Shown here: positions 4,842 to 44,628 of the stretch, piece by piece
Layout: each line of letters begins with the position of its first letter
Numbering within the stretch: position 1 is the stretch's first letter
DNA from: an uncultured Candidatus Saccharibacteria bacterium
GTDB lineage: Bacteria > Patescibacteriota > Saccharimonadia > Saccharimonadales > SZUA-47
Direction: 5' to 3'
NCBI GenBank assembly: GCA_964419675.1
Contig: CAYQPN010000004.1
Coordinates: 11,001 to 75,000 of the forward strand
Length of the DNA stretch: 64,000 nt
Notes under the pieces: generated by a model
Database searches by the model: none
The model's input: only the letters and a program-made list of their open reading frames with translations
Told to the model about the DNA's origin: nothing
Position numbers and translations under genes: made by a program

Positions 4842-5155
4842 ACGATCAAATAAAAGAACTCACATCAAAAATTACTAAAAAAATTGGGCCCCTAAGCTCT
4901 TTTATGGCTAGACACAGATTTATATTAGTATTTTTAGTTGCTTGTGGGGTAATTCTAATAACCCTATTGCAAACCAGAATCTACACTAATCCGGAGAGAA
5001 ACGACGCTAGATTTGAAACTGGAAAGTCTGCGATAAATGTATTCACGATAGATCAAGATATTGTCGATAAACTTAGTAAAACTTCCGAAGATCAAAACAT
5101 TGAAGTTGATCAGAGCCTTGTTCCTAACCGCAATAACCCCTTCATTGAACAGTAG
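4838..5155 (+). CDS. Small membrane protein, last gene of the pilus operon (function unknown)
   Basis: This 105-aa protein has one TM. Its ATG overlaps the pilO stop (ATGA). I recognise no family. Confidence 0.5.
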   Translation: MNDQIKELTSKITKKIGPLSSFMARHRFILVFLVACGVILITLLQTRIYTNPERNDARFETGKSAINVFTIDQDIVDKLSKTSEDQNIEVDQSLVPNRNNPFIEQ

Positions 5156-5158
5156 GAG

Positions 5159-5734
5159 TTAGTCGGTAATATTGGGTTCAGGACGAAGTTCGTTGTCGTG
5201 TTGACCTAGCATTTTTTCTCGAGCTTCCAAAATTATTTTTGCATAATAGCCTGGTCTAGGACAGTTAGTAAAACTGAAGTTCACTTGCTCGCCAGCCGTT
5301 TCAACGTTTAAAGCTCCAAAGTCAAAAAGTGTTGATAATACACCGTCCTGTTTTGCCGTTACATCTTCAACGTTTGCCAGATTCAACTGAGAAACTTTTC
5401 GGCTAAAAAGTCCATACTGAAGGGTTTGTGTAATGTTTCTATCGGTTATTACAAATCTGTTTTGGCGATATATAATCGTCGCGATAATTAATATAATAAT
5501 AGCCACACCTACGACAGCAGATGCAAATATATTTGCAATCATGAATGCTGCGTCGGTATCACTCAAGACAGAAGGTATTAGAAAGTAAGATAACAACAAG
5601 CCTGCTATTAGCCCCACAGCGGTTTCTAAAAAAACTATGATAATCCCTATTGGGTGCTTTACGATTTCTGCCAGCTTAACTTCGTCTGCATCTACGCGGT
5701 TTATCGTAGATTTCATGTTGTATTGTGTTCTCAT
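5159..5734 (-). CDS. Membrane protein with bacterial PH (YdbS/YdbT-like) domain
   Basis: Two TM helices are followed by a RFVITDRNI...LNVETAG pattern typical of bPH_2 domains. Confidence 0.65.
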   Translation of the reverse strand: MRTQYNMKSTINRVDADEVKLAEIVKHPIGIIIVFLETAVGLIAGLLLSYFLIPSVLSDTDAAFMIANIFASAVVGVAIIILIIATIIYRQNRFVITDRNITQTLQYGLFSRKVSQLNLANVEDVTAKQDGVLSTLFDFGALNVETAGEQVNFSFTNCPRPGYYAKIILEAREKMLGQHDNELRPEPNITD

Positions 5735-5746
5735 ATTTAATTTAAA

Positions 5747-6787
5747 TTATAGCAGTTTTTCTTGAGAAGAGCTGTTAGATTTTGGCTTTATGTCCATGTG
5801 CTGATAGGCCCTACTTGTTACTTTTCTACCTCTCGGTGTCCGTTCTAAAAAGCCTATTTGCATCAAATACGGTTCATAGAAATCTTCAACCGTACTAATT
5901 TCATCACCCAAGACTGCAGCTAACGTGTTTAAACCCACAGGTCCACCAGCATGATTTTCAATAATCGCTCGAAGTAACATTCTGTCAGCAGGGTCTAATC
6001 CCATTTTATCTACTTCAAGTAACTCTAGTGCTTTATCCGTAACCACGTCATCAATTATTCCATCACCGTTTACGTCGGCATAATCCCGAACTCTCTTTAG
6101 TAGTCGGTTAGCAATTCTTGGCGTGAGTCGTGACCTTGTTGATAATACTTCTGCAGCATTCCCTTTTAGCTCAGAGCCAAGTATTTTGGATGACCGTTTA
6201 ATAATTGAAGCAATTTCTTCCGGTTTATAGTATTCAAGTCTGTGCAACATGCCAAAACGGTCCCGTAAAGGCGCTGCTAGCGCTCCAGTACGGGTTGTAG
6301 CCCCTATTAAAGTAAACTTAGGCACATCAAGCCGTAAACTCCGTGCACTAGGCCCTTTGCCAAGCATTATATCAATTGCGTAATCTTCCATTGCAGAATA
6401 AAGAACTTCTTCGACAGAACGGTTCAAGCGGTGAATTTCATCAATAAACAACACGTCACCTTCACCCAGGTTTGTAAGTATGCTAGCTAAGTCTGCGGCG
6501 CGATCAATTGCGGGCCCGCTCGTTACGCGTATTTGTGCGCCCATTTCGTTAGCAATAATACTGGCAAGGGTAGTTTTACCAAGTCCTGGTGGGCCGTAAA
6601 GCAAAATATGGTCTAGTGGTTCAGCGCGTTTTTTAGCAGCCTGAATCGCTAGCTGTATATTTTGTTTTATTCTCTCCTGACCAATCCAGTCGCCAAAACT
6701 TGTCGGCCTTAGAACATTCTCGATCCGTTTCTCTTCTTCGTCTGGAGCATCATCCTGCGCAGGATTAACAATTCTTTCAATCGCCAT
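5747..6787 (-). CDS. ruvB: Holliday junction branch migration ATPase RuvB
   Basis: It has Walker [10 protein letters not shown], the DEIHRL motif and overall RuvB colinearity. Confidence 0.97.
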
Positions 6788-10061: not shown

Positions 10062-10125
10062 AAGGAAAAACTCGAGCCTTCCTTATCTAATATATTCTTC
10101 TCAGTAGAAGCAAATCATATAAAAA

Positions 10126-10146
10126 GACTCATTCTTAAGATGAGTC
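10126..10146. terminator. Bidirectional hairpin terminator
   Basis: The stem GACTCAT/ATGAGTC is flanked by an A-run and a T-run. It can terminate the plus-strand gene 9324-10061 and the minus-strand tRNA-Lys/family A unit. Confidence 0.7.
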
Positions 10147-10154
10147 ATTTTATT

Positions 10155-10309
10155 TGGAGGGCCCGATGAGACTCGGTCACCTCTGGCGACCCCTAAACTA
10201 CATTTTTCAAAACAAGTTTTGAAGAGTAGGTTTCCTTGCGAAATGCCACCGGCATTTCTCACTCATGACACCGAATGTGTCGTGACTTGAATCTCATCTG
10301 GAGTCGACC
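10155..10309 (-). repeat. Family A element, copy 1: 5'-truncated tRNA-Lys copy with an 85-nt three-hairpin module in its T-loop
   Basis: Segment 10155-10175 equals the tRNA-Lys 3' 21 nt (21/21). Segment 10261-10272 equals the tRNA variable loop plus 5' T-stem (12/12). The module at 10176-10260 is shared with the copies at 31837, 38975 and 39228. Confidence 0.75.
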
Positions 10310-10337
10310 AAAAATAAAACCGTCCTTTTGGGACGGT
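10310..10337 (-). terminator. Rho-independent terminator directly after tRNA-Lys
   Basis: The stem ACCGTCC/GGACGGT is followed on the minus strand by TTTTATTTTT. Confidence 0.75.
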
Positions 10338-10345
10338 GCTATTTT

Positions 10346-30659: not shown

Positions 30660-31274
30660 ATGAATGAGATAGAAAATACCTCTAAGCGATTACTAGACCT
30701 TCAGAAGTTACTATACAATTTTTCTCAGATTAAACGAATGATTTATTTTCCTGAATCGGTCGGTAAAGGTAGAAAAGAGACAGATACTGAGCATAGTTTT
30801 CATCTAGCTATTCTGGCATGGTATGCAAGCACTCACGTACCAGGTTTAGACACCAACAAGATAGTAAAGTACTCTTTAATACATGACTTAGTAGAAATTT
30901 ATGCTGGTGATGTCATGGCAATTGGGCGAACCAAGGAAGAACAAATACAAAAATCGCTGAAAGAAAAACTGGCGTTAGAAAAATTCGGCAAACAATGGAA
31001 AGACTTCCCCGAACTTATTAGTTCTATGGAGGCTTACGAAAACCAGATTGACGAAGAGTCTAAATTCGTAAAAGCCCTAGATAAACTCACACCGATGCTA
31101 CATAACATTCTGGGGGAAGGTAATTCATGGAAAAGGCTCGATTTAGAGCGCAGTACTATTCTCTCTAACAAAGACAAGTCCACAAAAATATCAAAAGATG
31201 TTGCAAAATTATGGGCAGAGTATAAAAAACTTATCTCGAATCACCCTGATTGGTTTAATAAAGGAAAAGCATGA
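30660..31274 (+). CDS. HD-domain phosphohydrolase (YfbR-like 5'-nucleotidase family)
   Basis: It has H...HD motifs (TEHSFH, IHDLVEIYAGD). The ATG at 30660 is preferred over the ORF-track start, which overlaps tilS. Confidence 0.75.
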   Translation: MNEIENTSKRLLDLQKLLYNFSQIKRMIYFPESVGKGRKETDTEHSFHLAILAWYASTHVPGLDTNKIVKYSLIHDLVEIYAGDVMAIGRTKEEQIQKSLKEKLALEKFGKQWKDFPELISSMEAYENQIDEESKFVKALDKLTPMLHNILGEGNSWKRLDLERSTILSNKDKSTKISKDVAKLWAEYKKLISNHPDWFNKGKA

Positions 31275-31825
31275 AACACTTATACTTCGTTAGGCATGGT
31301 GAGAGCGTATTTAACGTAAAGGGTGTGGCCGCGGGGACATCTAACACACCACTTACCCCCAATGGAAAGGCCCAGGCAACTGCCCTTGGTAAAAAATTAC
31401 GCGACCAAGGAATTGTTTTTGACGTCGTATTAAGTTCACCGCTTGAAAGAGCCCACCATACTGCTTTGGAAATAGCTATGCACACAAATTATCCTACCCA
31501 CTTGATAGAACTAAATAATGACTTAGTGGAACGAAATTTCGGAGACATGGAGGCTAAAAGTCTTACTGCTGACTTTGGAATAACTGGTGAAGAATACCAA
31601 ACTAACCCCTTTTCAATCGACCATATCCCAAATGTTGAGAAAATAACCGATCTTCAATACCGAGCAAATAAAGTTTTAGAATACCTGCGCTCGCGTCCAG
31701 AAGACACGATATTGGTTGTTGGGCACGGTGCGTTTGCCCGTTCTTTGCAAAGAGCAATTATAAACGCCCCACTTACTGAGCCTGTGAGGACGCTTAATAA
31801 CGCCGAACTAGTGAAGCTGATTTAG
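31271..31825 (+). CDS. Histidine phosphatase family protein (phosphoglycerate mutase-like)
   Basis: It has the RHGES motif (LYFVRHGES) and a later VVGHGA motif. Confidence 0.85.
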   Translation: MKHLYFVRHGESVFNVKGVAAGTSNTPLTPNGKAQATALGKKLRDQGIVFDVVLSSPLERAHHTALEIAMHTNYPTHLIELNNDLVERNFGDMEAKSLTADFGITGEEYQTNPFSIDHIPNVEKITDLQYRANKVLEYLRSRPEDTILVVGHGAFARSLQRAIINAPLTEPVRTLNNAELVKLI

Positions 31826-31962
31826 GGTGAGATTTGCCCACGTTCCGCGGGCCCAGAATTTTCATGCGTCGAACAAGTTCGACCCTGAAAAGTTCTCTTG
31901 CGAAATGCCACTGGCATTTCTCACTCGCGACTTTTCGGCGTTCAAATTTACTACTAGTTACC
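31825..31962 (-). repeat. Family A element, copy 2 (downstream of tRNA-Met; 3' tRNA-like end truncated at a CDS stop)
   Basis: The module is at 31837-31922. ACTCGCGAC (31923-31931) equals the tRNA 5' T-stem region at 32019-32027. GTGAGATTTG (31827-31836) equals tRNA positions 32008-32017. Confidence 0.7.
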
Positions 31963-31996
31963 AAAATAAAATCACCCTAGAAGGGTGACCTTATTT

Positions 31997-32073
31997 TGGT
32001 AGCGGGAGTGAGATTTGAACTCGCGACCTCAGGCTTATGAGTCCTGCGCTCTAACCAACTGAGCTATCCCGCC
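31997..32073 (-). tRNA. tRNA-Met (anticodon CAU, elongator-like), CCA encoded
   Basis: It forms a cloverleaf with the CTCATAA anticodon loop, and its D-arm is identical to typical elongator Met. It has a G1-U72 pair and single mismatches in the anticodon and T stems. A hairpin terminator lies at 31963-31988. Confidence 0.8.
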
Positions 32074-38779: not shown

Positions 38780-38808
38780 TTGACTACAGCGATACTGCCT
38801 GATATAAT
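38780..38808 (+). promoter_or_regulatory. Near-consensus sigma70 promoter for tRNA-fMet
   Basis: TTGACT (38780-38785), a 17-nt spacer and TATAAT (38803-38808) end 13 nt before the tRNA 5' end. Confidence 0.7.
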
Positions 38809-38821
38809 CATCAGGCTGTAT

Positions 38822-38896
38822 CGCGGGATGGAGCAGCGGCAGCTCGCTTGGCTCATAACCAAGAGGTCCCAGGTTCGAGTCCTGGTCCCGCTACCA
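38822..38896 (+). tRNA. Initiator tRNA-fMet (anticodon CAU), CCA encoded
   Basis: CGCGGGATGGAGCAGC...CTCATAA closely parallels E. coli tRNA-fMet. It has the C1-U72 mismatch characteristic of bacterial initiators. A hairpin terminator lies at 38905-38930. Confidence 0.9.
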
Positions 38897-38930
38897 AGAA
38901 TAAAGTCTCACATTTATGTGGGGCTTTTTT

Positions 38931-39083
38931 CTTGGTAATGTGCCAAGGCTAGAGCCTGGCCTAAGGTCACAGGTGAAAAGTGCCATTCGGCACTTTGCAA
39001 GAGAATCTTTCAGTATACAAACTTGTTTGTAACTTGAAAGTTCTGGGCCCGCGGCACGTGGGCGAGTCCTGGTCCCGCTACCA
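38931..39083 (+). repeat. Family A element, copy 3: 5'-truncated tRNA-fMet-like copy with an 88-nt module in its T-loop
   Basis: Segment 39063-39083 equals the tRNA 3' 21 nt (21/21). Segment 38964-38974 equals the tRNA variable loop plus 5' T-stem (10/11). The module is at 38975-39062. A pseudo-anticodon arm, AGGCT-AGAGCCT-GGCCT, is at 38946-38962, and its own terminator is at 39094-39121. Confidence 0.75.
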
Positions 39084-39206
39084 AAATAAATAACTCACCC
39101 TCGCGGTGGGTTTTTTATTTTAATATCGAGAGTCATGACTCGAACCTGACAGCCCGCTCTAGGCGGGCAGGTTCGCTAATTCCCCGTCCACCAATGGTGG
39201 ACAAAC

Positions 39207-39326
39207 TGGCGAATTACCATCTTTCCTGGCCACATTCTGCGGCCCCGAAACTTCATGACAGAAAACTAGTTTTCTTCAGAAGATTTCCTTGCAATGAGCC
39301 ACTGGCTCATTTCACCCGCTACCAAG
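39207..39326 (-). repeat. Family A module, copy 4 (inverted relative to copy 3), flanked by a third partial copy of the tRNA-fMet 3' end
   Basis: The module at 39228-39314 aligns over its full length with the other copies and has covarying stems. CCCGCTACCAAG (39315-39326) equals tRNA-fMet 38887-38898. Confidence 0.65.
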
Positions 39327-39384
39327 CATAAGAAATACAGCTTCCGAAAGGAAGTCATTTCTATTTGTTTGATATGATGAGGGT

Positions 39385-40041: not shown

Positions 40042-40218
40042 CTTCTTCCTCTACTCGTCTCCTCTAGGAAATTATTCCATGCACCCCCGCCAGTCGGGGA
40101 CTCAGACGAAGCCAAGTGGGCAGATAAGAACAGTTATAGTATAAAAAATACCTAAACCTGTTAACTTTTAATGCTTGACTACCAGGATTATAATATAAGT
40201 ATAAATAGGGAGGTTACC

Positions 40219-41325
40219 ATGAGTAATGAGAATACCAACCAAGATACTGCAGCGAGCACAGGGAGTAATAAGCCTGTAAAACAAAAATGGAGTCTAAAAA
40301 AGAAAGTTACAGTTGCTTTAGGCGTAGTTGTGGCGGTTATTGCCGGTCTAGTGCTTGTTGCCAACGCGGCAACGCGCGAACCGGTTAAAGTGAGTAACCA
40401 GCTTGTCTCTTATATACAAGCTAAAAACGCGACTGCCGCCTACGATCTACTCTCTAGGGATGCAAAAGATGTCACTGATGTACAAGATTTCTCTGCGACG
40501 GTTAATCAGATAGGGCCGATTTTGACGGGTAAGCCTAACATGCAAAGTAAAGAAGTTAGCGCCCAAACAGGCAGAGCATCTACGGCAAAAGTAGTTTACG
40601 AAATAAGTGGTAGCGATAGCTTAGTGTATGTTTTAACAGTCAATCTAGTAAAAGAAGATGACCTTTGGAAGGTGCAAAATTTTGAAAGTGTCAAAAAGTC
40701 CAATAGCGCGTCCGATTCTATTTCAGCATCACTAAATATAAACAAAGAAGTCCAGAGCAAATGTATGACCGAGGTAAGCGATGATACTTTTTGTAAGTTT
40801 GTTGGCGTCTTTGCTAATGTAGCTGAATATACCGTCGTCATGAACACTGTTAGTGGTGGCCAGACTAGCGTTGCAAATATCTCGTTTGACTCAAACGGCG
40901 ACGGATCTATGGTTATGGAACAAGACGGGACAACAATAGCAAATATCGTTTATTATAGTGGTGCAACTTATGTACAGAATCCGGAAAGTCTTGGTTGGAT
41001 AAAATATGACTCTACAAACACAGACGCTCCTTCTATACCGGACATAAGGAGCGAACTAGTTAAATCTGATTTTAAAAATGATAACGGTAAAAAAGATCAA
41101 TACTTTAATAAAGGTAGGGAGACCATAAACGGCGTGGAGTGCATAAAATACCAAGTCGTAGATGCCGATAAACCCAATGACCAGGGCTTCATGTGGTTTG
41201 ATTCTGACACCTATTTGTTGAGACAACTATCTAACAAAGACTCTTCTTCGGAGTTTACAATGACATTTAGCTACGGCAAAGTTACAATAGCCAAACCCTC
41301 ACCTGTAGAAGACGCAAGCCTGTAG
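40219..41325 (+). CDS. Membrane-anchored extracytoplasmic protein, unknown function (LolA-like/DUF4367-like C-terminal half possible)
   Basis: The ATG at 40219 is preceded by GGGAGG, so the ORF-track start at 40171 is discounted. It has one N-terminal TM. Confidence 0.55.
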   Translation: MSNENTNQDTAASTGSNKPVKQKWSLKKKVTVALGVVVAVIAGLVLVANAATREPVKVSNQLVSYIQAKNATAAYDLLSRDAKDVTDVQDFSATVNQIGPILTGKPNMQSKEVSAQTGRASTAKVVYEISGSDSLVYVLTVNLVKEDDLWKVQNFESVKKSNSASDSISASLNINKEVQSKCMTEVSDDTFCKFVGVFANVAEYTVVMNTVSGGQTSVANISFDSNGDGSMVMEQDGTTIANIVYYSGATYVQNPESLGWIKYDSTNTDAPSIPDIRSELVKSDFKNDNGKKDQYFNKGRETINGVECIKYQVVDADKPNDQGFMWFDSDTYLLRQLSNKDSSSEFTMTFSYGKVTIAKPSPVEDASL

Positions 41326-41428: not shown

Positions 41429-42400
41429 CTAGTTATTGTGTACTGTGTCCTTGATGTGGTCTTCTACAAATTTTTGCCACAAAGTTACCATTCTTTCTTG
41501 AGATTCACCAATGTGAATTAAGCGTGCTTTTGCGTGTGCCACCATCAGAATTGCTCTGGCTCGTAGTCCTTCTGATGCTGTGCCCATGAACCCTTCATGC
41601 TCTAGTAAGTCACTAAGCCTATAAGGTACTACCTGTAAATATGAGCCAACCTGTAGTGTGCTCGGATTACGTTTTGGTTCACGTAATGTGTGTAACACTC
41701 GTGCCAAGTCGAGTGTAGGCCTACCTGGCCCGTCATATATCCACTCCCGTACCTCCGGAAAGCGATGCAGAATATTCTCTGCTATTTGCTCAACTTTATC
41801 AGCATCTTTTGGCCTTTCGCCAGATATTGATCTTGTTAGATAGTTTAAAATCGTAGCTCCAGGGTGCGAAGTCGGTATCGGAGTTCTACCAGGGCTAGAC
41901 AACATAAATGTAGTTAGTGTCTCCGAAGTAATAGGAGTTTTGAATGGGTATAAAGCTTTATACCCTTCAACGACCTGTAGTCTCCCATCGGCTTCAGCGA
42001 GTTCAACATAGCGATCACTCACATAAACCTTAGCCGTGCTCTTCACGGGTGATTGTTGCTGAGCTTGCAAATCAGCAGTTGTTTTAAGCCCAAAGATGCT
42101 TTTTTTCAATCTATCGCCCACTGTTTGCTCACAAAGTTCTTCCACGCTGCTAATCTGATCAACGTCAGTGCTTAAGACAAGTACATCAACATCTCTAAGC
42201 GTTCCGTCCTTTCTGCGCGTTGGCAGATCACAGCTTGCTGGTGCATACACTAAGCCAGACACCATGTCTATCATAGTTCGCTCATTAATCAATGCTGCCG
42301 AGCCATTCCCGCCAATAATATGAACTCTGGGAAGAGCGGGATCATCTAGTTGTTGAATAAAGGGTTCGATTATCTCGCCACATGTCATTAAATCTGCCAT
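41429..42400 (-). CDS. Hypothetical protein with possible minimal nucleotidyltransferase-fold motifs
   Basis: GGNGSAAL followed by RDVDVLVLS resembles the GS...DxD signature of Pol-beta-type nucleotidyltransferases. The rest of the protein is unassignable. Confidence 0.4.
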   Translation of the reverse strand: MADLMTCGEIIEPFIQQLDDPALPRVHIIGGNGSAALINERTMIDMVSGLVYAPASCDLPTRRKDGTLRDVDVLVLSTDVDQISSVEELCEQTVGDRLKKSIFGLKTTADLQAQQQSPVKSTAKVYVSDRYVELAEADGRLQVVEGYKALYPFKTPITSETLTTFMLSSPGRTPIPTSHPGATILNYLTRSISGERPKDADKVEQIAENILHRFPEVREWIYDGPGRPTLDLARVLHTLREPKRNPSTLQVGSYLQVVPYRLSDLLEHEGFMGTASEGLRARAILMVAHAKARLIHIGESQERMVTLWQKFVEDHIKDTVHNN

Positions 42401-43768: not shown

Positions 43769-43896
43769 TGGTGGGGGTACCTGGACTTGTCATAATTTGC
43801 TCGCTCGAGAGCGCAAGCGCATCTCGCTCAGCCAAGCACAGAAAACTCATCCGCCTTGGGCGGATTCGACCCAAGGGTTCAAATCTTCTACAACCT
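43769..43896 (-). repeat. Divergent family A-like element downstream of tRNA-Ile2, ending in a duplicate of the tRNA 3' 21 nt
   Basis: Segment 43769-43789 equals 43934-43954 (21/21, C56 to CCA). The interior has a GAGA-GCG-CTTG-CGC-TCTC hairpin and a T-arm-like CCTTGGG-TCGAATCCG-CCCAAGG. Its own terminator is at 43739-43762. Confidence 0.6.
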
Positions 43897-43933
43897 CAAA
43901 TAAAAACAAACTCCAGTGGAGCTTGTTTTTATT

Positions 43934-44628
43934 TGGTGGGGGTACCTGGACTTGAACCAGGGACCAATCGGTTATGCGTACCACTACAGCTTTTGCTGCC
44001 TCTTTCGTGTTTGTGGTCTGGACTGTCTCTTTATCCGCGTATTTGCGGATACTTGCCATACAGTCTCTACACCTTACCAGCTTTTTTATAAACTGGGCTT
44101 GGCTCGGGATTACCACTCAGCCAGTTGGCGGATAGAGGCTTCCCCGAATTTGACAAGATATACTTACTGGTTACCCATGTAAGCAGCCCTTTAACTTTTT
44201 GACTTATCTATAGTATACTTCGGTTATGAAGAACAGGTCTAACTGTGCCGTGTGTAATAAAATTCTATCCGGCAAACAAACATTGTTCTGCTCCGTGAAA
44301 TGTAAAAATACACAGCACCAATCATACCCTGCTCAAAAAAAGCGCGGATTAAATCGAAAACTCTATTTTATAAGAGAGTTAGGAGGAAAATGTTCTATCT
44401 GCGGATATGCAAAAAATATTTCTGCACTGGCATTTCACCACATACACGGTAAAGAATTTCAACTAGATGTTCGTGCACTATCAAACCGTAAAATTGAACC
44501 TATACTTGAAGAGGTCGCAAAATGTAAGTTATTGTGCAATAACTGCCACGCTGAAATTCATAACCCAAATCTAGACTTAGCCAAATTGTTAATTGAGCCG
44601 ACTGCTCTAACCACTGAGCTATACCCCC
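43934..44628 (-). tRNA. tRNA-Ile2-like (anticodon CAU) interrupted by a group I intron in the anticodon loop
   Basis: Exon 1 (44628-44596) reads GGGGGTATAGCTCAGTGGTTAGAGCAGTCGGCT. Exon 2 (43976-43934) reads CATAACCGATTGGTCCCTGGTTCAAGTCCAGGTACCCCCACCA. Joined, they form a perfect cloverleaf closely resembling E. coli tRNA-Ile2. Confidence 0.88.
43977..44595 (-). mobile_element. Group I intron (IC3-like core) in the tRNA anticodon loop
   Basis: The minus strand contains GTCAAATTCGGGGAAGCC, CCCGAGCCAAGCCC and AAGGTGTAGAGACTGTATGGCA. These match P3/P7-region strings of the Azoarcus tRNA-Ile intron as I recall it. The 5' exon ends in U and the intron ends in G. Confidence 0.8.

Follow-up and report, generated by a model that had tools for sequence, protein, structure and literature searches.

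A tRNA-fMet locus of Saccharibacteria carries a candidate small, structured and non-autonomous insertion element within a partial tRNA copy

Introduction

REP/BIME, Correia and RUP sequences, MITEs and IS200/IS605-derived palindromic elements are short, multi-copy, intergenic and hairpin-rich sequences without genes. Related short inserts also occur within tRNA genes: in Thermoproteales archaea, transposed tRNA introns occupy several tRNA positions (T-loop, D-arm) in many tRNA species. We know of no archaeal splicing endonuclease in Bacteria. CTX phage attP(+) and integron attC represent recombination sites that are made of folded single-stranded DNA. Saccharibacteria have genomes of about 1 Mb, which are expected to shed useless DNA.

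tRNA genes are moreover targets of integrative elements and islands, such as the tycheposons of Prochlorococcus (bioRxiv 10.1101/2020.12.28.424599) and phage Ms6, which integrates in the T-loop (PMC1762012). In Patescibacteria, group I introns are found in tRNA genes (PMC13011429). Finally, tRNA-like non-coding RNAs comprise viral tRNA-like structures (PMC8127992) and YrlA/Y RNA-like molecules.

Here we describe a locus behind the initiator tRNA gene of an uncultured Candidatus Saccharibacteria bacterium, located on contig CAYQPN010000004.1; the whole stretch of 64,000 nt that was analysed is referred to as the window. We give about an even chance to the reading that the region at 38931-39121 represents one unit of a family of insertion elements that are small, structured and non-autonomous, occur at tRNA genes and are specific to Saccharibacteria. 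No RNA family or mobile element described so far corresponds to this family, and a full-text literature search returned no description of such an element.

Results

The tRNA gene of the locus is an intact initiator-type tRNA-Met(CAT) with encoded CCA (38822-38896, plus strand; ARAGORN; Rfam RF00005, 60.8 bits). Its sigma-70-type promoter (TTGACT, 17 nt, TATAAT; 38780-38808, plus strand, 11/12 matches) is the sole promoter-like site upstream of the unit on the plus strand, and no such site was found between terminator 1 and the module unit. Terminator 1 (38902-38934, plus strand; stem 38902-38927, then T-tract) has a hairpin lengthened by its A-tract/T-tract, and CCA pairs with the TGG just after. 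It is followed by a degenerate inverted copy of tRNA-fMet positions 76 to 44 (38933-38962, no strand assigned; TGGTAATGTGCCAAGGCTAGAGCCTGGCCT versus TGGTAGCGGGACCAGGACTCGAACCTGGGACCT), with a local alignment score of 11 to the cognate tRNA versus a maximum of 8 for non-cognate tRNAs. This segment contains AGGCT-AGAGCCT-GGCCT, for which the original prediction had proposed a pseudo-anticodon arm; the sequence is present as described, but it is part of the decayed inverted copy of the tRNA 3' half, which pairs with the direct copy in predicted folds.

The direct copy is split in two. Its first piece, AGGTCACAGGT (38964-38974, plus strand), covers the variable loop, the 5' T-stem and T54, and is identical at 10/11 positions to AGGTCCCAGGT (38864-38874), at a spacing of exactly 100 nt. 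The final T of this piece may belong to the module rather than to the tRNA copy, because a T is retained there even in non-T-loop contexts. The 88-nt module, which we designate family A, follows at 38975-39062 on the plus strand (covariance model 88.1 bits, E = 2e-21). The second piece, CGAGTCCTGGTCCCGCTACCA (39063-39083, plus strand), corresponds to tRNA positions 56-76 (rest of the T-loop, 3' T-stem, 3' acceptor strand and CCA) and is identical to 38876-38896 at 21/21 positions. Terminator 2 (39092-39121, plus strand; stem 39092-39112, then T-tract) closes the unit. Order and coordinates of tRNA, terminators, tRNA pieces and module are thus as originally predicted, as is the absence of a 5' acceptor strand and a D-arm. 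Three public contigs assembled independently (ERZ3430527, SRR7369924, SRR7369912) reproduce the locus at 100% identity, which excludes an assembly artefact.

Decayed T-arm fragments, one inverted (GACTCGAACCTG, 39137-39148) and one direct (CAGGTTCG, 39168-39175), were read from the sequence at 39137-39175 with no strand assigned, and look like the remains of a further rearranged unit. They are followed by a fourth family-A module on the minus strand, antisense to the tRNA (39224-39324, core about 39230-39314; covariance model 89.8 bits, E = 7e-22; also detected by nhmmer). The covariance model match spans 39212-39319, 130 nt downstream of the fMet copy. The tRNA-fMet 3' end is partially copied here for a third time, again in direct orientation, and this copy encloses the module; it consists of TCCTGG (39224-39229) and CCCGCTACCA (39315-39324). 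The rule that modules always share the orientation of the neighbouring tRNA, proposed for the fMet, Lys and Met loci, is correct for these three and breaks down at the fourth copy. A bidirectional terminator hairpin (terminator 3, 39340-39355, no strand assigned) lies beyond it.

Within the window, the covariance model identified four family-A copies (E-values between 1e-21 and 1e-25). When a degenerate pattern representing the module's 5' half was searched, it matched all three co-oriented loci (fMet, Lys, Met) and was absent from all of 100 shuffles; given both results, the recurrence of the module is not due to chance. The Lys locus (10119-10422, minus strand; covariance model 104.3 bits) has the same architecture as the fMet locus: tRNA-Lys (10346-10422) and its terminator are followed by an inverted copy (~10310-10277), the direct piece TGTCATGAGT (10270-10261), the module (10260-10176), a 21-nt copy of the tRNA 3' end (10175-10155) and a second terminator. 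At the Met locus (31820-32073, minus strand; 100.6 bits), tRNA-Met (31997-32073) and its terminator precede the direct piece AGTCGCGAGT (31932-31923) and the module (31922-31836), after which only AAATCTCAC (31835-31827) is left of the tRNA, with a degenerate acceptor piece; a convergent gene (31271-31825) ends directly next to the unit.

Other insert families with the architecture of family A exist. Downstream of an intron-containing tRNA(CAT), a unit designated family B (43769-43933, minus strand) displays the order terminator, inverted T-arm-like segment, insert, 21-nt direct copy (CAAGTCCAGGTACCCCCACCA, 43789-43769) and second terminator. Its insert is unrelated (only a weak match of 16 bits to the family-A covariance model), and the insert motif recurs at other loci. 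A further 22 tRNA repeats adjoin inserts other than family A.

The module folds into hairpin P1, a GCAAG junction, a long P2/P3 hairpin with a CUUG loop, a GGG junction and hairpin P4, and is closed by the T-stem to form a four-way junction. For the fMet module, the minimum-free-energy fold is the consensus structure (-41 kcal/mol, z = -3.9). RNAalifold analysis of 98 copies predicted 35 pairs, 23 of them with compensatory changes, and compensatory evolution was evident in three helices. Paired cells amounted to 95.5% in the module alignment versus 79.9% in shuffles, and both-side changes to 508 versus 138 cells; none of 500 shuffles equalled the module on either measure, and slid controls gave 29-49% pairing. 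Module pairs comprised 163 G.U/U.G versus 20 A.C/C.A, indicating that the tRNA-sense strand is the folding one. The module is thus covariation-supported, strand-specific and conserved across species, as is generic for structured RNA. A pseudoknot of the CUUG loop with the GCAAG junction was rejected, as the variants CUAG, CUGG and GGAAAC show no covariation. A search of Rfam 15, at gathering score and at E up to 10, revealed nothing over 38975-39062 except a 24-nt chance snoRNA fragment. The Rfam models for hairpin, twister-sister and hatchet ribozymes did not match the module, and the hammerhead was rejected by eye as its core does not fit the junction.

The module pattern matched 104 genome stretches, all of them from Saccharibacteria or Patescibacteria metagenome-assembled genomes. 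These contain about 130 copies beyond those of the window (126 covariance model matches, 134 nhmmer matches); among the nhmmer matches beside a tRNA, 103 are co-oriented with it and 4 opposite. A copy is found within 250 nt of 94 of the 128 tRNAs in the loci, with at least 28 isoacceptor types involved. Each copy resides in a non-functional partial duplicate of its target, with the intact gene adjacent, and lies either downstream or upstream of the intact tRNA (41 copies upstream). The pattern matched no viral contig and no phage or plasmid sequence.

Copies within a genome have diverged to 74% similarity, compared with 72-73% between species; as both values are about equal, there is no sign of recent transposition, and by sequence comparison the divergence may be compatible with vertical inheritance and saturation. 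Gly(tcc) and Arg(tct) genes lie 6-17 nt apart in two loci (L096, L056) and are split by a pseudo-Arg, a module and a linker in two others (L055, L061), so that presence of the unit at one locus differs between species. Same-species contigs obtained via an HSP20 protein lookup were all 100% identical, and among them no strain-level insertion polymorphism was seen. A lookup with the peptidase S51 protein gave no record, and the 3' half of tRNA-fMet yielded no exact match in a metagenome scan.

The flanks are derived from the target. Alignment scores to the cognate versus other tRNAs were 16.5 versus 7.0 for the 3' piece, 8.4 versus 4.8 for the 5' piece and 10.4 versus 6.9 for the inverted copy (p = 2e-13). 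The inverted copy is weakly specific to the cognate tRNA and weakly constrained (G.U 101, A.C 62); its position-by-position conservation was uninformative, as non-cognate tRNAs align almost equally well. The 21-nt-type repeat is perfect in 28 of 50 downstream units. The acceptor/CCA piece scores below 15 against the cognate 3' end in 15 of the 50 downstream copies (decayed, absent or mis-assigned), and is missing from all 41 copies upstream of tRNAs.

Modules enter a hairpin loop straight after its G-rich 5' stem, such that the 5' flank always reads RRG(T). The usual insertion point is the T-loop, after G53 or T54. Rarely, insertions are found after the D-stem (several loci), in the anticodon loop (L048), in the antisense acceptor strand or in a terminator loop, the latter represented by a duplicated terminator hairpin (L054). 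Non-tRNA and non-T-loop targets show equivalent target duplication, and duplicated segments vary in length from 11 to about 60 nt. At homologous loci, tRNA 3'-end repeats also bracket other insert families and kilobase gene cassettes, and two loci (L004, L067) contain arrays of units with kilobase cassettes between them; the ORFs of these cassettes include an S24 peptidase and a kinase, the remaining ones having no Pfam/NCBIfam match. That the repeats may flank unrelated DNA at homologous loci had been named beforehand as an observation pointing to att sites, and it does favour an insertion or att-like origin of the flanks.

No recombinase was detected near the window copies or in the 104 loci by neighbour clustering and by Pfam/NCBIfam searches of neighbours and cassette genes, in which Pfam was applied to the most frequent neighbour clusters and to a small number of cassette genes. 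Likewise, XerD and lambda Int probes (approximate sequences) revealed no integrase in 742 kb around more than 130 copies. A linked protein partner was rejected: when the 1,418 ORFs of the 104 loci were clustered all against all, no family occurred in more than 14 loci, and the ten largest neighbour clusters were housekeeping genes by Pfam.

The module ends (TGAGAAATGCC... and ...GGTAGGTC) are no inverted repeats. With regard to IS200/IS605-type palindromic elements and REP/RAYT, hairpins do lie near both ends of the module, but these, P1 and P4, are dissimilar to each other. Without terminal inverted repeats, a short target-site duplication or a pair of similar subterminal hairpins, the module matches no known transposition chemistry. 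A MITE derived from a DDE transposon was discarded for want of terminal inverted repeats and because the target duplication is neither short nor of fixed length. A rolling-circle nick site in AACTTG was rejected because the loop varies in some copies, and an IS91-type GTTC target because non-tRNA targets lack GTTC.

Discussion

We propose that the flanks of the unit would be target DNA duplicated upon arrival of an element, whose conserved and selected part would be the module of about 88 nt, folding into a four-way junction on the tRNA-sense strand. The module would most likely be an RNA transcribed together with the tRNA, forming a trailer or, in the upstream arrangement, a leader; it may also act as folded single-stranded DNA. 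As disruption of a single-copy tRNA gene would be lethal, insertions would be seen only where the target is partly duplicated and an intact gene stands beside it. At the fMet locus, the intact tRNA would thus be retained upstream with terminator 1, and the interrupted copy (44-54, module, 56-76) would precede the putative original terminator; where the unit is upstream, the intact gene would be preceded by an interrupted pseudo-tRNA of almost full length.

The order of copies at the fMet locus is direct, inverted, direct: the tRNA 3' half with its terminator, the decaying inverted copy, and then the module-bearing direct copy. This order suggests one of two origins. Either a fold-back or template switch would have occurred at the palindromes of terminator and T-arm, or a small circle would have integrated, its inverted and direct copies rebuilding the duplex tRNA 3' half. 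With each further event, another unit, at times together with gene cassettes, would be added behind the tRNA.

The maintained structure of the module suggests a function at the level of the host and fits a purely selfish element poorly. More tentatively, we envisage that the module is the active part of a mobile element of a kind not described so far, a catalytic or guide RNA or a structured single-stranded DNA, which would target the exposed hairpin loops of Saccharibacteria tRNA genes, copy part of its target upon insertion and build arrays of units and cassettes without an element-encoded recombinase; or, alternatively, that it is a domesticated class of structured RNA tied to tRNA expression in reduced genomes.

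A related explanation dispenses with mobility altogether: the module would be a host cis-acting RNA of tRNA operons, i.e. a structured leader or trailer under selection for processing, stability, termination or sensing, with flanks arising from local duplication and gene conversion. In agreement with this, the structure is kept where the adjoining pseudo-tRNA sequence or flanks decay, including at the Met locus of the window, and copies missed by the pattern also retain the AACUUGUU loop and the junction nucleotides UGAGA, GCAAG and GGG. Furthermore, orientation is nearly always that of the tRNA, the arrangement is partly consistent per tRNA species across genomes (upstream for Pro and Trp; downstream for Lys, Val and His), and copies within a genome are old. 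However, the fMet module of the window lies beyond a strong terminator, and antisense copies as well as a copy in a non-tRNA terminator exist. Subfamilies of the module, e.g. one with a long P2, turn up in unrelated genomes and at unrelated tRNA types, species differ in its presence at one locus, and several unrelated inserts are found at the equivalent position. Nor does this explanation account for the location of a regulatory RNA inside a T-loop copy; we regard it as unlikely.

Still less probable, in our judgement, is that the units are classical att scars (attR and adjacent arm) left by tRNA-integrating islands or prophages whose integrase crosses over in the T-loop, with the module serving as a binding arm for the integrase or an accessory protein. 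Direct repeats of the tRNA 3' end do bracket the insert and succeed one another behind the tRNA (38887-96, 39074-83, 39315-24), cassettes of kilobase size lie between units in the two array loci, unrelated inserts share the architecture, and tRNA-targeting integrases with T-loop crossover are known, e.g. from mycobacteriophage Ms6 (PMC1762012). Against this stand the lack of an integrase in the 742 kb searched and of viral matches, and the size of most units (only about 190 bp). Moreover, a contiguous core is absent: the T-loop of the repeat is split after G53/T54 and the module sits inside it, at the would-be overlap region, rather than beside an intact core. Nor does a single att core accommodate the duplicated terminator, the insertions at D-arm and anticodon sites or the upstream arrangement. 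Protein-binding arms in double-stranded DNA would show neither compensatory changes nor the 163-to-20 asymmetry of G.U over A.C, so that a pure att-site explanation, which the original prediction had kept in reserve, fails to account for a module with compensatory evolution in three helices.

Very unlikely, finally, is the idea that the unit encodes a tRNA-like RNA, i.e. a tRNA without its first ~26 nt and with an expanded T-loop, whose T-arm/acceptor mimic is recognised by tRNA-processing enzymes such as RNase P and RNase Z or by CCA-adding enzymes: it draws on the 21/21 3' end including CCA, the 10/11 5' T-stem piece, a T-stem that closes the module in the consensus fold (87% pairing), a terminator of its own and a structure specific to the tRNA-sense strand, but an acceptor helix is impossible without the 5' acceptor strand, the T-loop motif is destroyed by the interrupting module, the supposed anticodon arm is inverted T-arm copy, the acceptor/CCA piece is not conserved in the family, the module also occurs in D-arm, anticodon-loop and non-tRNA contexts, no promoter was found, and neither ARAGORN nor Rfam calls a tRNA there. 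The flanks are thus no functional tRNA mimic. Of the nearly complete tRNA-like body put forward in the original prediction, the derivation of the flanks from the neighbouring tRNA, the position of the module in the T-loop of a partial copy and its folding on the tRNA-sense strand have held, whereas the body itself has not: when the module is taken out, the predicted fold of the flanks is a single long hairpin (-26.8 kcal/mol) and no cloverleaf. T-arm and 3' acceptor/CCA sequences are shared with known tRNA-like RNAs; in family A, unlike in these, neither acceptor helix nor T-loop can form, and the tRNA parts are copied from the neighbour and dispensable family-wide.

Returning to the proposed insertion element, it has parallels in tRNA-targeting islands. 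As in these, a partial copy of the tRNA 3' end lies at the far side of the insert, the tRNA remains intact with the replaced part supplied by the insert, insertions stack behind one tRNA, and cassettes are possible between repeats. Family A differs in having no integrase or hallmark gene, in the small size of most units, in the interruption of the repeat's T-loop by a conserved folded module, in the decaying inverted copy of the 3' half, in the mirror arrangement upstream with a pseudo-5' part, and in the use of nearly every tRNA species instead of a few. A tycheposon or "PRE1"-type element was rejected, as the preprint (10.1101/2020.12.28.424599) mentions no such element and no integrase is present here.

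The folded recombination sites attP(+) of CTX and attC of integrons resemble the units in that an inverted and a direct target copy can fold into a duplex site, in strand specificity and in arrays of cassettes plus structured elements, an array-like layout seen in L004 and L067. In family A, the inverted copy is decaying and the conserved part is a branched module, not a hairpin stem. With small non-autonomous repeats, the units share that they are short, multi-copy, intergenic, hairpin-rich, gene-free and presumably moved in trans, if at all. They differ from such repeats by the module ends and dissimilar P1 and P4 described above, and by a four-way junction with conserved junction bases, strict tRNA association and duplication of tens of target bases. 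As with the tRNA introns of Thermoproteales, related short inserts occupy several tRNA positions in many tRNA species; in family A, however, it is not a spliced gene that carries the insert but a truncated pseudo-copy, with an intact gene next to it.

Small as Saccharibacteria genomes are, most of their tRNA genes carry at least one unit of 150-200 bp, and compensatory mutations have preserved the fold of its core. Should the units be mobile, they would provide a route by which DNA, gene cassettes included, is inserted at essential single-copy genes that stay intact, with no integrase in the element; this would be relevant to how islands arise where ordinary mobile elements are missing from a lineage. 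As a host RNA, the module would represent a new, abundant class of structured RNA associated with the tRNA genes of a major uncultured phylum. In either case, both the annotation of tRNAs and the delimitation of islands in Saccharibacteria genomes will be confounded by pseudo-tRNAs and partial tRNA copies.

Two further candidates were dismissed. A riboswitch or cis-regulatory leader was rejected, as the downstream genes are unrelated housekeeping genes and the module follows a terminator at this locus and precedes tRNAs at others. For a group I intron, no RF00028 match was obtained in 38800-39140 at E up to 10, and the host copies are truncated. The group I introns of Patescibacteria have the lineage and the insertion into a tRNA loop in common with the module (after U, if the T belongs to the exon); the module, at 88 nt, is far too small, its terminal G is not conserved, and its removal from the host copy yields no tRNA. 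A true group I intron is present elsewhere in the window, at 44004-44211 (Rfam, 76 bits).

Structure of the tRNA-fMet locus

The tRNA-fMet gene (38822-38896, plus strand; ARAGORN, Rfam 60.8 bits) is preceded by a near-consensus promoter (38780-38808, plus strand) and followed by terminator 1 (38902-38927). Downstream lies a unit consisting of AGGTCACAGGT (38964-38974), a copy of the tRNA variable loop, 5' T-stem and T54 (10/11 match) situated exactly 100 nt downstream of the matching tRNA positions, the 88-nt family-A module (38975-39062, plus strand) and CGAGTCCTGGTCCCGCTACCA (39063-39083), a 21/21 copy of the tRNA 3' end, after which comes terminator 2 (39092-39112). The original prediction had described the sequence of this unit accurately; the arrangement is genuine and lies far outside chance expectation. 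On the minus strand, an identical layout is displayed at the Lys and Met loci, and a degenerate pattern of the module 5' half matched the window exactly at the fMet, Lys and Met loci (0 of 100 shuffles). The tRNA-fMet locus was reproduced at 100% identity in three independently assembled public contigs and is thus not an assembly artefact. A promoter scan revealed no promoter between terminator 1 and the unit, so that RNA of the unit could arise here by read-through only.

A covariance model made from family-A copies (R1) detected a fourth module at 39212-39319 on the minus strand (89.8 bits). It is antisense to tRNA-fMet, so the proposed constant co-orientation of module and neighbouring tRNA does not strictly hold; it has a variant P1, AAUGAGCC/GGCUCAUU, and a CUAG loop. 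The module interrupts a third partial tRNA 3'-end copy (TCCTGG at 39224-39229, module, CCCGCTACCA at 39315-39324), which is followed by terminator 3, and the tRNA-fMet locus is thus an array of three 3'-end copies. Just 3' of the array, two proteins of 384 and 323 aa (40171-41325, plus strand; 41429-42400, minus strand) gave no Pfam and no significant NCBIfam match.

Fold and covariation of the module

The consensus derived from an alignment of 98 module copies comprises four helices and is closed by the T-stem. P1 is GAAAUGCC/GGCAUUUC, P2/P3 a long hairpin with a CUUG loop and P4 a short hairpin; conserved single-stranded UGAGA, GCAAG and GGG connect the helices. Support for this fold from covariation is strong: compensatory double changes were found in 23 of the 35 predicted pairs, 95.5% of the paired cells were complementary compared with 79.9% in shuffles, and 508 cells had changed on both sides compared with 138. 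None of 500 shuffles attained the observed pairing or double-change value, and sliding the partners lowered pairing to 29-49%. G.U/U.G combinations outnumbered A.C/C.A combinations in the module helices by 163 to 20, a bias that places the fold on the tRNA-sense strand, be it RNA or single-stranded DNA. The tRNA-fMet module alone folds into exactly the consensus junction (-41 kcal/mol, z = -3.9). Part of the invariance in the alignment is accounted for by the search pattern itself, but in 19 copies found only by nhmmer with the module-alignment profile, UGAGA, GCAAG and GGG were still kept, and AACUUGUU mostly. Composite modules occur in L024, L025, L026, L043, L045 and L064 (L numbers denote genome stretches matched by the module pattern), where P4 is replaced by a second, divergent module (GAGAUGAGCC...GGCUCAUYGCAAG...) beginning after the GGG of the first (P1-P3).

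The module fold persists where adjacent sequence decays, which speaks for selection on the module. The 5' parts of pseudo-tRNAs retain 72% to 100% identity to the real gene; across this range the modules remain 84-97% paired, and the two values are not significantly correlated (rho = 0.30, p = 0.08). Two Arg-locus units differ in 14 of 89 module columns, eight of which form four fully compensated pairs. Copies within a genome (74%) are as diverged as copies between species (72-73%), with no sign of a recent burst.

Distribution and genomic context

In a pattern search covering a single genome of each species, 104 stretches matched, every one of them in metagenome-assembled genomes of Saccharibacteria/Patescibacteria. 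Neither the module pattern in viral contigs nor the unit in phage and plasmid collections gave a match. The covariance model yielded 126 matches in 678 kb of loci and nhmmer 134, window included; of the latter, 62 lie downstream of a tRNA on the same strand, as in the window, 41 upstream on the same strand, 4 on the strand opposite to the tRNA, and 27 close to the edge of a locus or distant from tRNAs. A copy was present within 250 nt of 94 of 128 tRNAs, in loci selected for module presence, and at least 28 isoacceptor species are involved. All four window tRNA genes, counting an intron-containing tRNA(CAT) at 43934-44628, carry a unit; three of these units belong to family A, and the fourth (43769-43933) shares their architecture with an insert unrelated to it.

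Where the unit lies upstream, the module is in the T-loop of a near-full-length pseudo-tRNA and the intact tRNA comes last. Ahead of the module, the pseudo-copy runs from the 5' acceptor strand through D-arm and anticodon arm to the 5' T-stem, and after it only a few bases of T-loop/3' T-stem remain; an inverted T-arm piece and an AT-rich linker separate it from the intact tRNA. Two upstream pseudo-tRNAs (L003, 89-310; L013, about 5900-6150, minus strand) carry a module in the T-loop as well as one after the D-stem.

Duplicated targets at the flanks

The underlying find is better than was supposed, although the reading of the unit as a tRNA-like body with an expanded T-loop is largely wrong: the flanks represent duplicated target sequence and do not mimic a tRNA. 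Once the module is removed, pairing between inverted and direct copy folds the fMet flanks into a single long, imperfect hairpin (-26.8 kcal/mol, z = -2.6), and with the module the same long-range pairing surrounds the four-way junction; neither fold resembles a tRNA. Flanks follow the adjacent gene, with scores for cognate and non-cognate tRNAs of 16.5 and 7.0 for the 3' piece and 8.4 and 4.8 for the 5' piece. Among 50 downstream units the 3' piece was essentially perfect in 28, slightly decayed in 7 and below a score of 15 in 15, some of which may be mis-assigned neighbours, while all upstream units lack the acceptor/CCA piece. Further sites of the module are the position after the D-stem of pseudo-tRNAs (L001, L003, L018, L034, L086, L090, L097), the anticodon loop in a pseudo-tRNA-Leu (L048), the antisense acceptor strand (fourth window copy) and, in L054 (about 5000-5250), a non-tRNA terminator hairpin that has been duplicated and carries the module in its loop. 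At every site the 5' flank has RRG as its last bases before the T with which the module opens, and the target is partly duplicated, with an intact copy beside the interrupted one. The tandem duplication in L054 spans ~50 bp (layout L, module, R, AA, L, R), and two target bases, GG, are missing at its junction, as in L048.

The presumed pseudo-anticodon arm falls within 38933-38962 (TGGTAATGTGCCAAGGCTAGAGCCTGGCCT), a degenerate reverse complement of tRNA positions 76 to 44 (TGGTAGCGGGACCAGGACTCGAACCTGGGACCT). Most downstream units contain such a decayed, tRNA-specific inverted copy after terminator 1, with a mean local alignment score of 10.4 for the cognate tRNA compared with 6.9 for the others (Wilcoxon p = 2e-13). 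In the window, the scores of the three co-oriented units are 15, 12 and 11, and the highest values for non-cognate tRNAs are 11, 9 and 8. The inverted copy is weakly constrained (Watson-Crick 939, G.U 101, A.C 62, other 170). At many loci, including window 38887-38935, the terminator 1 hairpin is lengthened by an A-tract/T-tract and by pairing of the tRNA CCA with the TGG opening the inverted copy; the tRNA 3' half, terminator and inverted copy form one long palindrome centred at the terminator loop.

Related loci give evidence of insertion. In L096 and L056, 6-17 nt separate Gly(tcc) from the adjacent Arg(tct) gene. In L055 and L061 the space between the two genes is taken up by pseudo-Arg(1-53), then a module with positions 56-62, then an inverted T-arm and finally a linker; this duplication takes in 8 nt upstream of the tRNA. 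Module subfamilies, such as a long P2 variant, are spread over unrelated tRNA species and genomes.

Proposed mechanism and relation to known systems

The mechanism as a whole, like the function of the module, is inferred. The module would be a structured, non-autonomous insertion whose targets are the exposed loops of hairpins, mostly the T-loop, where it enters after a G-rich stem, and insertions would be tolerated only with partial target duplication and a regenerated intact gene. The direct-inverted-direct order, with putative turning points at the terminator loop and the variable-loop/T-arm palindrome, may be the signature of either fold-back/template-switch synthesis or small-circle integration. 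Such a circle would contain positions 56-76, then the terminator and the inverted copy, then positions 44-54 and the module, with crossover at the module boundary; terminator 2 would then be the original host terminator and terminator 1 would have arrived with the element. The module may act as RNA co-transcribed as a tRNA leader or trailer, or as a folded DNA recombination substrate.

No recombinase was found among the neighbours, which speaks against a classical integrase scar: on clustering of 1,418 ORFs no family extended beyond 14 loci, the ten largest clusters sent to Pfam proved to be housekeeping genes, Pfam and NCBIfam searches of window neighbours and cassette genes revealed none, and XerD and lambda Int probes had no match in 742 kb. 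Candidate identities were rejected for a group I intron (no group I core in the module), a described RNA family (no Rfam 15 family over the module, even at E = 10) and a tRNA-like RNA (no tRNA-like fold in the unit). In appearance the element comes closest to REP/MITE-type repeats, which are likewise short, multi-copy and hairpin-rich, but the module has neither terminal inverted repeats nor a short target-site duplication. In the way it works it comes closest to tRNA-site integrative elements, in that the target repeat preserves the tRNA and units stack; however, no integrase was found with family-A units and they have no contiguous core site. Full-text literature searches returned no description of the element. 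The family-A module is thus a widespread, undescribed, covariation-supported structured element that marks partial tRNA gene duplications throughout Saccharibacteria.

Cassettes and other inserts

According to the original prediction, 21-nt repeats flanking unrelated DNA at homologous loci would favour a pure att-site explanation; such DNA was found, as other inserts and as cassettes, and on that reasoning an att-like origin is favoured for the flanks. Another 22 partial tRNA 3'-end copies, each exact over at least 14 nt, lie downstream beside other inserts, among which at least two recurrent types are visible. L004 contains tRNA-Lys, unit, 2.6 kb and unit, and L067 the same series followed by 1 kb and a third unit. 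These cassettes of 1-2.6 kb behind tRNA-Lys(ctt), with family-A units at both sides (L004, 2972-5789; L067, 781-4693), encode an S24 LexA-like peptidase and a uridine-kinase-like protein; several of their proteins, one of 501 aa, had no Pfam or NCBIfam match.

A third recurrent insert, C, comprises CACGCRCAG, a short hairpin and CGAGCATG, in this order; it directly precedes partial copies of tRNA 3' ends in L009, L032, L051 (two copies) and L101, and also occurs after family-A units in L036 and L079. The family B insert (window 43769-43933, minus strand; also L009, L025, L052, L085, L088 and L098), with the motif ..CTTGGC.GAGCGAGAT..CTCGAGCGAGCAA.., is preceded by an inverted T-arm-like segment and followed by a 21-nt direct tRNA 3'-end copy with its own terminator. 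The adjoining tRNA(CAT) (43934-44628, minus strand) was missed by ARAGORN; its 5' exon GGGGGTATAGCTCAGTGGTTAGAGCAGTCGGCT starts at 44628 and its 3' exon CATAACCGATTGG...CCCCCACCA ends at 43934. It carries a group I intron of ~610 nt, with an Rfam match restricted to 44004-44211. This intron appears to lie between positions 33 and 34, not at 35/36, the site reported for Asn and Asp tRNAs (PMC13011429).
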